64,000 nt of DNA from positions 32,001 to 96,000 of the forward strand of contig JBHLOY010000007.1 in the NCBI GenBank assembly GCA_048939995.1. The letters are read 5' to 3'. The stretch's first letter is position 1; each line of letters opens with the position of its first letter. The stretch is from Promethearchaeota archaeon (GTDB lineage: Archaea; Asgardarchaeota; Lokiarchaeia; Sigyniarchaeales; SOKP01). The notes beneath the pieces are model-generated. The model did no database searches. It saw only the letters and a list, made by a program, of their open reading frames with translations, and was not told the origin of the DNA. Both the position numbers and the translations under genes were made by a program. Below are positions 42,436 to 51,570 of the stretch, piece by piece.

Positions 42436-43179
42436 ATGGAGTTTGAATCTAAATATTCTTTCATTAAAACTTTCTTATCTATTCCTGATGCCCCGTTTAA
42501 ACTTAAAGAGAGATTAGACTCCCTTATTGAATCTGATAGCTATAAAGAAGAGATTTTAGCAAGAATTATTCAGTTTATATATTATTTTTCCATGTTTAAA
42601 GATATAACACCATTTATGAGATCAGTATATAATTGCATTGAAAAGACTCTTGATATTACATTCGAATCAATAAACGATTTTCAAGAATTATTAATAAAGA
42701 ATACATTATTAATCTTCATTCAAGATTATATTAATTACGCGAAACTAACTCAAAAACGGCAAATCTTAAAACTTTTATCGGATTCCTTAGATAAACTTCA
42801 GATACAACCTCTTATTATTAATTTAGGACTTCTTTTAAAACCAATGTATCAAGATAAGGAATATCTTGAAAATATGCTGTATCTCGAAGAATTTGAAGTC
42901 GCTTATAACCAAGATGATAAACTTGGGTTCCAAATAAAACGTGAAATTGATAACTGGTTTGCAACTCAGACATTAGATTTAGATAATCAAGAAAATTTGA
43001 AACTTTTATTGAAAAGAAAATTTGATGAAGTTGTTTCCCATACCGGAGTTGATAAAAAGTCGAAACATTATCAAAAGTTATTATTAGAGGTTATGGAAAT
43101 GCTTACAATGAAACTTACAATGATAAGCTTAATGGATTCTGTTTCTGATGAATCCCTTGAATCGATATCAATAAAATAG
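42436..43179 (+). CDS. Hypothetical alpha-helical protein
   Basis: 247-aa ORF with no recognised motif. Confidence 0.7.
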   Translation: MEFESKYSFIKTFLSIPDAPFKLKERLDSLIESDSYKEEILARIIQFIYYFSMFKDITPFMRSVYNCIEKTLDITFESINDFQELLIKNTLLIFIQDYINYAKLTQKRQILKLLSDSLDKLQIQPLIINLGLLLKPMYQDKEYLENMLYLEEFEVAYNQDDKLGFQIKREIDNWFATQTLDLDNQENLKLLLKRKFDEVVSHTGVDKKSKHYQKLLLEVMEMLTMKLTMISLMDSVSDESLESISIK

Positions 43180-43328
43180 AGGATTATTAAAAGCTTTCAA
43201 TCCAATTTTAGTATTTTGTTAAGTGAAATCTTTACGCAAAATTCAAAGCTAGTAATTTTGCGATAAACAAATTAATAAATACAAAGTTTGATTTTATATT
43301 TAACAAGAGGTATTTTATTTTTTATAGA

Positions 43329-44708
43329 GTGAGAGAATTGGGAGAGAATGAAGAACCTTTAACACCGGAAGAAATTGAAAAACAAAAGAAGATCGTTGAT
43401 GAACTTTATAAGAAGGAAAAAGAAGAGAGGGAAGAATATCTTAAAAAATTTGAGAAACAGAGAAAAGACGCATTTGAGGAAAGTAAAAGGTTGATTACCA
43501 ATATAATTTCAGAAAAAAGCTTTATAAGAGAAAAACAACGCGAACAGGACCAGAAGAGAAAAGAGCTTAAACCAGATATAAAAAGTAAGGGAGAAGCAAT
43601 AAGTAAATCTGTCGATCAAAAGGTGTTTATGATAGAAAAGAAGAGAGAAAGTGATACTCAGAGGTTAAAGATTAAACCAGATTTAGAAAAAACTACCGAA
43701 GCGATAAGTAAATCAATTGATGAAAAAGCTTTTTTAATTGAAAGAAAGAAAGAGATTGACGCTCAACGGCTTAGTGTAAAACCTGATAAACAAAAAATAG
43801 AACAAGCTATAGAGAAATCTATAGGAGAAAAGGCATTTTTACGAGAAAAACAACGAGAGGAAGATGCTAAAAGAATGGAACTAAAGCCAGATTTTAGAAG
43901 AGTAGGAGAATCAATTGAAAGAAGTGTAGGTGAAAAAGCTTTCCGAATTGATTTGCAACGAGGAGCAGAGCAAAAAATAAAAGCTTTAAAACCAGATATA
44001 AAAAGTAAGGGAGAAGCTATAAGTCAATCTGTTAGTGAGAAGGCATTTAGATTAGAGAAGCAAAGAGAAACTGTGGAAGAATTAAAAAGTATCAAACCAG
44101 ATCTAGAACAAGCGAAGCAAGCCATAGAAAAGTCAATTAGCGAAAAAGCTTTTATGCAGGAAAAACAACGCGAGGAAGATACTAAACGAATGGAATTAAA
44201 GCCAGACTTCAGAAAAGTAGGAGAATCAATTGAAAGAAGTGTAGGTGAAAAAGCTTTCAGAATTGATTTGCAACGAGGAGCAGAGCAAAAAATAAAAGCT
44301 TTAAAACCAGATATGGAGAAAGTGGGAGAAGCTATAAGCCAATCTGTTAGTGAGAAGGCATTTAGATTAGAGAAGCAAAGAGAAACTGTGGAAGAATTAA
44401 AAAGTATCAAACCAGATCTAGAACAAGCGAAACAAGCCATAGAAAAATCAATTAGCGAAAAAGCTTTTATGCAGGAAAAACAACGTGAGGAAGATACAAA
44501 ACGAATGCAACTAAAACCTGATTTACAAAAAGCAGGAGAGGCTATAGAAAGAAGTATTAGCGAAAAGGCTTTTAGGAGAGAAAAGCAAAGAGAAAACGAT
44601 CTAAAGCGAAAGGAATTAAAACCAGATATCAAAGGAATAAGCGAAAAAATCGAAGACAAAATAGAAAAAATCGAGGAGAAAAAGAAAAAGGAATCACCAT
44701 CTGATTAA
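43329..44708 (+). CDS. Highly charged protein with about 11 tandem 35-aa repeats
   Basis: KPD recurs every 35 residues. The consensus is KPDhxxxxEAIxxSI(S/G)EKAFxxEKQRExxxxxxxL. Confidence 0.9.
   Translation: MRELGENEEPLTPEEIEKQKKIVDELYKKEKEEREEYLKKFEKQRKDAFEESKRLITNIISEKSFIREKQREQDQKRKELKPDIKSKGEAISKSVDQKVFMIEKKRESDTQRLKIKPDLEKTTEAISKSIDEKAFLIERKKEIDAQRLSVKPDKQKIEQAIEKSIGEKAFLREKQREEDAKRMELKPDFRRVGESIERSVGEKAFRIDLQRGAEQKIKALKPDIKSKGEAISQSVSEKAFRLEKQRETVEELKSIKPDLEQAKQAIEKSISEKAFMQEKQREEDTKRMELKPDFRKVGESIERSVGEKAFRIDLQRGAEQKIKALKPDMEKVGEAISQSVSEKAFRLEKQRETVEELKSIKPDLEQAKQAIEKSISEKAFMQEKQREEDTKRMQLKPDLQKAGEAIERSISEKAFRREKQRENDLKRKELKPDIKGISEKIEDKIEKIEEKKKKESPSD
43885..44515 (+). repeat. Near-identical 315-nt tandem duplication (3 x 35-aa super-repeat) inside the repeat gene
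   Basis: GTAGGAGAATCAATTGAAAGAAGTGTAGGTGAAAAAGCTTTC occurs at 43902 and 44217, an offset of 315 nt. Boundaries are approximate. Confidence 0.88.
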
Positions 44709-44713
44709 AAAGT

Positions 44714-45202
44714 TTATATTTCAAAGTTAGAATTGTAATAATTCAGCATTTCTAGCTTCTTTTCATAATTTAAAATTGAGGGTTCAATTATACCATTAAA
44801 CTGATTAATTGAATTTTCATAGCGATTGTAAAAATCATTTATAATGTAATGTAACAAGTGCCTTTCAAACTTTAAATTTAATTTTTTAGTAATTGCTATT
44901 ACCGACAAGCGGCCTAACCTTTCATATAAAATACGTGTTTCTCTAAAGTTAATCTCTTGAATTTCTTCATCTGTATCTCCCGGTTTTATTTCCTTTATAA
45001 ATAAGTTAAGAGCATTTAAAAATCCGCTAATTAAATCTCCATTTGAAGTATTATTTCTATTTTGAGAATACTGTTTACTTATAAGTAAAGATCCTGTGAG
45101 ATTATCTAAAAAATAAATTGCATGAAAAAAGCAATCACTTTGGTTCACTCTTTTAAATCCAAAACTCTTATTATTAACAATTTTATTAAAATTAAACGAC
45201 AT
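44714..45202 (-). CDS. Longin-like domain protein
   Basis: HAIYFLD..GSLLISKQY..DLISGFLNALNLFIKEI..IQEINF..RILY. Confidence 0.7.
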   Translation of the reverse strand: MSFNFNKIVNNKSFGFKRVNQSDCFFHAIYFLDNLTGSLLISKQYSQNRNNTSNGDLISGFLNALNLFIKEIKPGDTDEEIQEINFRETRILYERLGRLSVIAITKKLNLKFERHLLHYIINDFYNRYENSINQFNGIIEPSILNYEKKLEMLNYYNSNFEI

Positions 45203-45407: not shown

Positions 45408-45893
45408 TTGGAGTTTTGGATGCATATGGTTTCTTATAACAATGAAAGTAAGAATAAAAATAAAATTTCTTTAGGTTTAATAATAACTAAAGAAGATTTA
45501 AATTCCACCCTCTTCCCCGATGAGGTTAAAGATGAAATTACTGAATCCCCCTACTATTTATTAATATTTATTTCAAGAGAAGACGTTATAAAAGTAAGCT
45601 GCTTTCCTACAAATACAAATTTAATCAAAAAAATACTAATAAAATTAGAGGAATTCTCACCGGAAATAGTGAAAGGAATTTCAGAAGTTTTAAGTAAATT
45701 AAATTTAAGTAAAGATATTTTACATACAACTGGAATTTGCTATGAACTAGAAAAATGTTTTTATGAAACATATTTAATAGGAGATACTCTCGAATCTGGA
45801 AATATAAATTCAGATACAATTAAAAATGAATTTTTAAGAATAAATAGAGTTAACAACGTTACTATTGAGAATATCCCGCTACATTCCAAATAA
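45408..45893 (+). CDS. Hypothetical protein, possible C-terminal ACT-like fold
   Basis: 161-aa ORF with a PEIVKGISEVLSKLN..ILHTTG pattern. Confidence 0.6.
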   Translation: MEFWMHMVSYNNESKNKNKISLGLIITKEDLNSTLFPDEVKDEITESPYYLLIFISREDVIKVSCFPTNTNLIKKILIKLEEFSPEIVKGISEVLSKLNLSKDILHTTGICYELEKCFYETYLIGDTLESGNINSDTIKNEFLRINRVNNVTIENIPLHSK

Positions 45894-46539: not shown

Positions 46540-46666
46540 GGCTCCTGCTACCACCCTGGATTTTTGTCTTTTGGTAGTGTGTGAAAGCACACTCTGATTT
46601 CGCCCTCCTCCCCCTATTTTGTTTTTGACCTTGCTTTTAGGTCTTGGTGGCAGGAGTCTCCTTTTT
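46540..46666 (+). ncRNA. Candidate structured non-coding RNA of unknown family (about 120-127 nt)
   Basis: A GC-rich island in very AT-rich intergenic DNA. It has a 13-bp terminal stem GGCUCCUGCUACC/GGUGGCAGGAGUC whose G-U pairs favour the + strand, a GAAA-tetraloop hairpin (46576-46593), a hairpin at 46627-46643 and a trailing T-tract. Confidence 0.65.
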
Positions 46667-50332: not shown

Positions 50333-50941
50333 TTGAAAAGACTTACAATAAACAGACTTATGCCAAATAATTCTGAATTAATTGGGGAATATAAAGGTAC
50401 TGTTAGAAATAGGGTGGTCACAGCTCTCTTACAATCATATCTTGATAACCTTGATTATGATGGGATGAAATCCATCTTAAGAGAGGCAGGATTATTAGAA
50501 TTTAAAGACATGAGAGACATAGATCCAGATGCAACTATTGATTTTTTTTCATTTAAAAAAATAATTACGGCTCAGAATTGTTTATTATATGATTCTACAA
50601 AACTTTTATATGAAGTAGGACGCAAATTTTGCTTTTATTTGTTTCCTTATGGCAAAAATTTTGAAGCGATCATCAAAGACATTAACGAATATATCCAAAC
50701 TGATTGGAGTGTTGAGATAGTAGAAATGTCTGAAGATTCAATTACTATTCGCGTAGACAAATGCATATTCTGTTCTGAAATTGGAGTTAGTTGTGATCTA
50801 TTTAAGGGTTTTATCGTTCATTCAGTTGAAAAGACATTATCATCGAATCATGATGTTGTTTATTATGGAGAGAAAGAGAATGTAAATGATCCTTGCCATA
50901 ATTCATTCATTCTAAAGTTGAAAATAAAAAAAAAGCTTTAA
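50333..50941 (+). CDS. V4R-domain protein
   Basis: LYEVGRKF..ITIRVDKCIFC..SCDLFKGFI..C. Confidence 0.65.
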   Translation: MKRLTINRLMPNNSELIGEYKGTVRNRVVTALLQSYLDNLDYDGMKSILREAGLLEFKDMRDIDPDATIDFFSFKKIITAQNCLLYDSTKLLYEVGRKFCFYLFPYGKNFEAIIKDINEYIQTDWSVEIVEMSEDSITIRVDKCIFCSEIGVSCDLFKGFIVHSVEKTLSSNHDVVYYGEKENVNDPCHNSFILKLKIKKKL

Positions 50942-51021
50942 AACAAAAAAGGAAAACAATTAAATATATCAAAAATCAAAATAATGTTACATCCTTAAAT
51001 ATCGCATATTTTTAACCGTTA

Positions 51022-51570
51022 ATGACCACCGAAGAACGAGAGTTTGTATTTAAAATTACAATATTAGGAGATGCAGCGGTCGGAAAGACATCTCTAATAA
51101 ATCAATTCGTTGAAGGATCTTTTCAAGAGGATTATAAACCAACTTTAGGAGCAAATATTGTCCGTAAAGATGTGGATCTAAGTGAAATAAATGCTCAAAT
51201 CCGATTAATCATGTGGGATCTTGCAGGCCAGGAAAAGTATAATGTTATTCGTTCAATGTACTTTCAAGGATGTGTTGGGGCCTTAGTTGTATATGATATT
51301 ACACGTTATCAGACATTTGAGAATGTAGAGTCAAAATGGCTTAAGGATTTCAAGAAATATGTAAAAAAGGAGGGCGCTTACGTACTAATAGGTAATAAGA
51401 TTGACTTAGATGTTCAAAGAGCCGTGTCTAAAGAAAATGGAAAAGAATTAGCAGAAAAAATACAAGCTAGTGATTTTATTGAAACAAGTGCTAAATATGG
51501 GGAGAATGTAGAGAAAGCATTTAAGAACTTGGTTTTTCAAATCTTAAGAAATTACGGAGAGAAAGTTTGA
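51022..51570 (+). CDS. Rab-like small GTPase
   Basis: GDAAVGKTS, PTLG, WDLAGQE, GNKID and ETSAK. Confidence 0.95.
   Translation: MTTEEREFVFKITILGDAAVGKTSLINQFVEGSFQEDYKPTLGANIVRKDVDLSEINAQIRLIMWDLAGQEKYNVIRSMYFQGCVGALVVYDITRYQTFENVESKWLKDFKKYVKKEGAYVLIGNKIDLDVQRAVSKENGKELAEKIQASDFIETSAKYGENVEKAFKNLVFQILRNYGEKV

Follow-up and report, generated by a model that had tools for sequence, protein, structure and literature searches.

The window, a stretch of 64,000 nucleotides of lokiarchaeal DNA, encodes a protein composed of strictly periodic 35-residue units. The repeat family is new, although its general type is known, and has a putative link to the actin cytoskeleton. The protein is accessory and lineage-restricted, the family being confined to one lokiarchaeal order among the genomes searched. 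Homology to the nebulin repeats, which the initial annotation considered beside convergence, is rejected on the basis of sequence comparisons in which the nebulin profile was derived from vertebrate N-RAP only. Of several possible explanations, we tentatively favour an accessory multivalent helical binder that would lie along the lokiactin filament and be nebulin-like by convergence, a reading drawn from geometry and analogy that we regard as possible rather than probable. No description of the family was found in the literature (coverage of which was incomplete), among solved structures or in Pfam.

The gene and its immediate surroundings comprise the following features.

42436..43179, forward strand: gene flanking the repeat gene upstream, 247 aa, without a Pfam family; it marks the conserved site and is more widely distributed than the repeat gene
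43287..43303, forward strand: AT-rich element situated some 35-50 bases ahead of the start, conserved in similar form in most homologous loci; probable archaeal promoter
43329..43333, forward strand: GTGAG, probable ribosome-binding site, with GTGA ahead of TTG/ATG in most homologues
43338..44708, forward strand: repeat-protein gene in its probable true extent, TTG start, 456 aa
43338..43493, forward strand: non-repeat head (ORF residues 4-55), a conserved long helix with invariant columns in the alignment
43494..43568, forward strand: first, partial repeat, with core motif and charged helix and without K-P-D; HMM domain score 26 bits
43569..44618, forward strand: ten full repeats (r1-r10) of 35 aa (105 bp)
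43884..44513, forward strand: recent duplication of a 315-bp block, r4-r6 versus r7-r9, with 297 of 315 bases identical
44619..44705, forward strand: last, partial repeat and charged tail, with K-P-D and first helix and without the aromatic motif
44714..45202, reverse strand: convergent gene flanking the repeat gene downstream, 162 aa, without a Pfam match; longin-like by eye

The open reading frame as listed (43329-44708, forward strand) has a GTG start and yields 459 residues on translation. The start is probably TTG 43338 rather than GTG 43329, because TTG (38 cases) or ATG (12 cases) stands at the aligned position in the 51 homologous loci inspected, preceded by a conserved GTGA that in the window overlaps the GTG at 43329. 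A record in the ESM Atlas (one unnamed match, 0.78) likewise begins at ORF residue 4. The gene is single-copy in the genome, and its GC3 is unremarkable (65th percentile). Comparison with two orthologues gave a dN/dS of 0.04-0.12 for the head and of 0.08 for the repeats. The gene is under strong purifying selection (dN/dS about 0.08) and hence encodes a real, selected protein. Neither a signal peptide nor a membrane segment could be recognised in the sequence, and the protein would be cytoplasmic.

In the window protein, K-P-D occurs eleven times at a spacing of exactly 35 residues, bearing out the ten full and two partial repeats that had been described originally; the unit quoted at that time as an example (residues 256-290) is also correct. 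Self-identity reaches 0.43 at lag 35 and 0.56 at lag 105, as compared to a maximum of 0.16 in 200 shuffles. Each unit has a single Pro and consists to 36% of Lys plus Glu, and Trp, Cys and His are absent. In the head, a pattern of hydrophobic residues spaced 11 apart (I16, Y27, L38, F49, I60) can be read by eye. A 3-unit super-repeat was considered as a trait defining the family and was discarded, as this is the best lag in only 22 of 38 genes, with lags of 1, 2, 4 or 5 units elsewhere.

When 134 other genomes of the same lokiarchaeal family were searched with a profile of three repeats, 109 were found to carry the gene. The profile also matched in 3 genomes from two sister families, and a search of about 250 additional Asgard genomes gave no match. 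A single-repeat profile that includes divergent units resulted in the same distribution, and there was no match in three single-contig sister-family genomes (6.0, 4.4 and 4.3 Mb). Of the 45 proteins retrieved from 1.84 billion representatives, nearly all are family members or fragments. Exact look-ups of three sequences yielded no database name. The named relatives are Promethearchaeota or Promethearchaeia (Loki-type) MAGs, including E44_bin85 from the same genus (SOKP01), and the Asgard (lokiarchaeal) origin proposed at the outset is thus upheld. Records titled Hermod-, Hod-, Odin- or Thorarchaeota (L022, L024, L025, L040-L042, L046, L054, L056) share the gene order; these titles are probably wrong because of the shared gene order and identity, and because several of the records coincide with same-genus genomes. 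One further record (L033) has the name of a bacterial family in its title. Two other matches, P0036 and the TPR-like P0044, were rejected as repeat artefacts.

Within the family, the repeat gene is found between the 247-aa gene and the convergent longin-like gene. Three genes, at 42436-43179 (+), 44714-45202 (-) and 45408-45893 (+), none of which has a Pfam family, are conserved in order throughout the family and in part of the sister-family genomes, whether or not the repeat gene intervenes between the first and the second. The site is empty, with the flank genes directly adjacent, in genera g17 and g23 as well as in the sister-family genera g9 and g11. As nothing lies between them, the absence of the repeat gene at this site is real and not due to an assembly gap. 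The lokiactin of g17 and g23 is 95-100% identical to that of the window genome, and no site in it sorts with the presence of the repeat gene. It is from the empty sites in these relatives with near-identical lokiactin, together with the absence from the single-contig sister-family genomes, that the accessory nature of the protein follows. In two distant members (G030 and P0040), the gene lies upstream of a metallo-beta-lactamase-fold-like gene (by eye; Pfam), which is possibly an older location. No cytoskeletal gene is a conserved neighbour of the repeat gene.

Elsewhere in the window, a V4R-like gene (50333-51570, forward strand) adjoins a small GTPase gene, a pair that is kept in those related loci that reach that far. 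A G+C-rich island with complementary ends (46540-46666) is located within an A+T-rich spacer; Rfam, applied at the gathering threshold, gave no match in the whole window, including this island. A second lokiactin-like paralogue with 81-85% identity occurs in genomes of the gene-less genus g23 (G278, G279, G280, G281) and in the gene-carrying G019. An actin-family gene (G000 C28:71383-72333, L061) resides in a 510-aa frame, longer than a plain actin, and similar frames of 490-570 aa were found across the order.

A comparison of 429 distinct units, numbered from the K of K-P-D, revealed a small set of near-fixed positions: P2 (85%), I11 (98%), I/V15, E/D17, K18 (98%), A/S19, F/Y20 (100%), K/R24, K/R26 (100%) and E/D27. 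Position 16 is G, S, A, E or D, and other positions vary freely. Positions 4-15 are amphipathic and weakly helical, with small residues on the apolar face (hydrophobic moment 0.53), frequent Gly and occasional Pro (Gly 26-38% at positions 6, 8 and 16; Pro 4% at positions 7 and 13). Positions 17-33 form a charged helix almost without Gly or Pro, and for the charged positions 23-33 the moment is 0.07. The array is slightly basic, at +0.6 per unit. Covariation among the 429 units consists of near-neighbour and duplication signals only, with no sign of packing. The spacing of units is 35 in 417 out of 425 cases and 32 in six, indels being almost absent, and there are 2 to 13 motifs per whole gene, mostly 9-12, where low counts may be assembly collapses.

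The distant members depart from this pattern, with a period of 37 without Pro (G030, P0025), of 32 (P0040) or of 37-41 (G029), while a 10-residue core ending in K-A-F is kept. In L064:4987-5892 (-) and L067:1285-2199 (-), three canonical units are followed by units of 40-41 residues in which the aromatic residue is changed to L or I. Neither the 35-residue period nor the Pro is a family-wide constant, and the notion of one Pro per charged 35-residue unit therefore applies to the window protein and cannot be extended to the family. At the C-termini of L101, L102, L044, L045, L122 and P0002 there is a short extra conserved helix with a tryptophan, which is absent from the window protein.

The AlphaFold2 model of the full-length protein has a single helix in each unit, with breaks at K-P-D and no packing (pLDDT 63, pTM 0.19), and that of three units (101 sequences) again consists of unpacked helices (pLDDT 69, pTM 0.27). 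A self-folding solenoid, which would have spoken against actin binding, is thus not predicted. The predicted head helix spans residues 13-80, with a pLDDT of 82-88 over residues 11-50. At moderate confidence the models show no kink within the unit; the residues found at position 16 would allow a kink at the place where the nebulin unit is kinked. On a continuous helix, F20 is about 180 degrees away from I11. A Foldseek search of the PDB gave no match for the predicted structure, and shape searches with VIA and the Atlas returned generic long helices only and nothing specific; a lack of matches in such searches is not informative. For the member with a 37-residue period, the ESM Atlas had nothing usable. 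The near-invariance of I11, K18, F/Y20 and K/R26, in a chain with neither a predicted core nor packing covariation, points to a repeated external contact, one for each unit. Given the lack of a core of its own, the exact period and the few invariant exposed residues, we infer that the protein is a multivalent ligand of something that itself repeats.

Several known systems have a comparable organisation. Tandem WH2/beta-thymosin and RPEL arrays consist of a short amphipathic helix and a conserved motif at a spacing of about 35-45 residues in a chain that is otherwise unfolded. The archaeal protein is similar in that it, too, has a short amphipathic helix with a conserved motif behind it as the recurring element of a chain that would otherwise be unfolded. 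Among the Pfam matches listed for the members and for 42 single units, none is to WH2, beta-thymosin or RPEL, and an inspection of the repeats by eye revealed no LKKT-type or RPxxxEL motif.

A period of 35 residues and a K-P-D are also found in the designer PPR protein dPPR10 (PDB 6een), and a PPR-like helical solenoid that binds RNA was suggested by a phmmer match to this protein with an E-value of 1.6e-8. However, the match derives from the period and the K-P-D that the two proteins have in common, the target being artificial and perfectly repeated, and it is lost when the family profile is used. It serves as a control, as dPPR10 attains this score via period and K-P-D alone, while nebulin repeats score nothing. 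A PPR repeat is a packed hairpin of two helices, whereas AlphaFold predicts a single unpacked helix per archaeal unit, with no hairpin and no second hydrophobic helix, and the positions that form the core of PPR helix B are charged here. No PPR family is among the Pfam matches listed (best 25 of 80 for members). A PPR identity was discarded, and this explanation is effectively refuted.

A self-assembled, segmented coiled-coil rod or fibre, serving as spacer or scaffold, would account for the all-helical prediction and for a period that equals five heptads. A hydrophobic stripe (I4, G/A8, I11, I15, K18, I22) runs along one face, the head has the 11-residue pattern, and the top VIA rows are coiled coils, but with Z of 6.4 or less these are non-specific, and their rmsd is mostly 8-14 A. 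Also, the stripe covers only half of each unit, leaving out the charged positions 23-33 with their moment of 0.07, and the stripe helix tolerates both the Gly at positions 6, 8 and 16 and the Pro at 7 and 13. As the invariant F20 lies off the stripe and the 37-residue period breaks the heptad register, we consider such a rod unlikely.

Membrane binding, or the protection of proteins under stress, by an array of amphipathic helices similar to exchangeable apolipoproteins and LEA proteins is quite unlikely. Those proteins also have Pro-broken helices, and the first half of the archaeal unit is amphipathic with small residues on its apolar face; short Pfam Entericidin matches to the helix of positions 4-15 occur in 19 of 31 members, and there is a weak match to apolipoprotein A-IV (E 0.3, the best score). 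However, the Entericidin match covers 12 residues, summed over the copies, and among single units is found in 1 of 42; like the matches to UBA_SIK3, it was rejected as a repeat artefact. The period of apolipoproteins and LEA proteins is 11/22 as opposed to 35, the second half of the archaeal unit is charged and not amphipathic, and neither an exact period nor an invariant K18 and F20 is needed for interaction with lipids.

A further such system is nebulin (PF00880; nebulin, nebulette, N-RAP, LASP). Both have Pro-punctuated, charged helical units of about 35 residues, not self-folding in nebulin and predicted not to be so in the archaeal protein, both have small, acidic and aromatic residues at the spacing of S-D-x-x-Y, and the archaeal unit length, like that of nebulin, would fit one actin subunit. 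The nebulin unit is an extended helix-kink-helix-loop of 31-38 residues (bioRxiv 10.1101/2021.10.06.463400); the archaeal unit lengths of 32, 35 and 37 are within this range, which the degenerate units of 40-41 exceed. Nevertheless, Pfam Nebulin (cut-off 20.1 bits) gave no match at E<=10 in the protein, in 31 members, in 42 single units or in the whole genome. For the nebulin side of the profile tests, 78 non-redundant repeats were cut from vertebrate N-RAP proteins only, using a nebulin seed that was checked against Pfam and that served only for retrieval of real N-RAP sequences. An HMM of these repeats scores the window protein at 2.2 bits (HMM cross-search values 2.2 and 1.2 bits), hhalign assigns a probability of 0.4-0.6% (P 0.10-0.15), and BLAST against N-RAP has an E-value of 0.86. 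In a composition-aware comparison over all cyclic registers, tested against column shuffles, p was 0.63 (global) and 0.47 (local), and the reversed profile scored higher than the true one. The profile similarity to the nebulin repeat that homology would predict was found neither by HMM nor by hhalign. The best local profile alignment places S/G-E-K-A-F on the nebulin SDxxY, so that the register originally chosen by eye is recovered, but the alignment is not significant.

Nebulin contacts actin through D3, K11, S18, D19, Y22, K23 and K30 (bioRxiv 10.1101/2021.10.06.463400), and only 2 out of these 7 positions are kept, D19 (D/E 93%) and Y22 (replaced by F; F or Y 100%, Y 4%). D3 (D/E 0%), K11 (K/R 16%), S18 (S 20%) and K30 (K/R 21%) are not conserved in the archaeal units, and K/R is found in 31% at the equivalent of K23. 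Pro is at 0% where nebulin has its position-5 Pro, as the distance from the motif to the archaeal Pro is larger by one residue. Nor do nebulin repeats show conservation at the positions of I11, K18, A19 and K/R26, which are invariant in the archaeal units. On the actin side, K68, which contacts nebulin Y22, aligns with M75 of the lokiactin from the window genome, and E276 with D283. Nebulin has a 7-unit super-repeat, whereas the archaeal family has a lineage-variable 3-unit duplication, lacks LIM and SH3 domains, has 2-13 units and occurs in one lokiarchaeal order. Nebulin repeats have been reported only from animals, choanoflagellates and Capsaspora (PMC3305314). A true nebulin/LASP homologue, with a module older than eukaryotes, would explain the same modal length, the SDxxY register and the acidic and aromatic residues at D19 and Y22. 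With no significant score by any of the methods applied, and with the most conserved residues of each family not conserved in the other, it is very improbable and has largely been refuted.

The genome encodes lokiactin at G000 C19:136486-137628, as had been assumed, together with three other actin-family proteins and gelsolin-domain proteins. The lokiactin filament has a rise of 27.9 A per subunit, corresponding to 55.8 A (2 x 27.9) along one strand (PMC9834061). By simple arithmetic, at 1.5 A per helical residue, a Pro-free helix of 37 residues would measure 55.5 A, and a unit of 35 residues, about 31 of them helical, would reach about 55-58 A including its short hinge. Nebulin covers the same distance with 31-38 residues (bioRxiv 10.1101/2021.10.06.463400). 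Because the unit length fits a strand subunit and the genome encodes actins and gelsolin domains, binding to the side of lokiactin is our first choice. In its most specific form, that Loki-type archaea independently evolved a nebulin-like side-binder of actin filaments with one module per subunit, the proposal is somewhat doubtful.

If this is correct, the protein would be a non-globular string of helical modules that acts by avidity. Each module would offer the same small binding face (I11, I/V15, E17, K18, A19, F20); a charged helix acting as spacer and a short Pro hinge would come next. The array would lie along a partner that repeats every ~5.5 nm, most likely the side of the lokiactin filament, with one module per subunit of one strand, and a chain of 11 modules would brace ~60 nm of filament. 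The conserved head helix may dimerise or anchor the protein. A stabiliser or tether seems a better description than a length ruler, the role first envisaged and now doubtful; a strict ruler is unlikely as the copy number varies widely (2 to 13), the array would extend over ~60 nm only, and close relatives with the same actin lack the gene.

A number of observations do not favour lokiactin as the partner. The site is empty in g17, g23 and several sister-family genomes, with a near-identical lokiactin in g17 and g23, and the gene was not found in the three single-contig sister-family genomes. Two distant members have units of 40-41 residues, a period of 32-41 would suit many partners (and 35 would also suit five heptads), a conserved cytoskeletal neighbour is lacking, and the array is only slightly basic. 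The modules might instead bind another repeated partner, with the spacing being a mere linker length. Candidates are FtsZ-family or ESCRT-III polymers, a divergent actin paralogue, or several copies of a soluble protein, and the genome has one tubulin/FtsZ-family gene in addition to the three divergent actins. This would agree with a 10-residue core that is kept though the period differs by lineage (32, 35, 37, 37-41) and copies range from 2 to 13, and with a lokiactin that does not change with the presence of the repeat gene. On the other hand, a free linker does not need the exact period and scarcity of indels seen within each protein. Subunits of FtsZ and tubulin are spaced at ~4 nm, which would suit 27-29 helical residues, a period never seen here. 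We regard such a different partner as doubtful.

Regulation of Asgard actin has been ascribed mainly to gelsolins and profilins (PMC13716822). If our favoured reading, side-binding to lokiactin, is true, a filament-bracing repeat protein would join these as a further class of regulator, and would represent a clean case of convergence with nebulin, in which one filament geometry twice gave rise to a 35-residue solution. The family would not be ancestral to nebulin, and searches of those Asgard groups that are nearest to the eukaryotes did not detect it, so that it has little direct bearing on the origin of eukaryotes. Should the protein not bind actin, it would still stand for an undescribed and strongly selected repeat family of one archaeal lineage.
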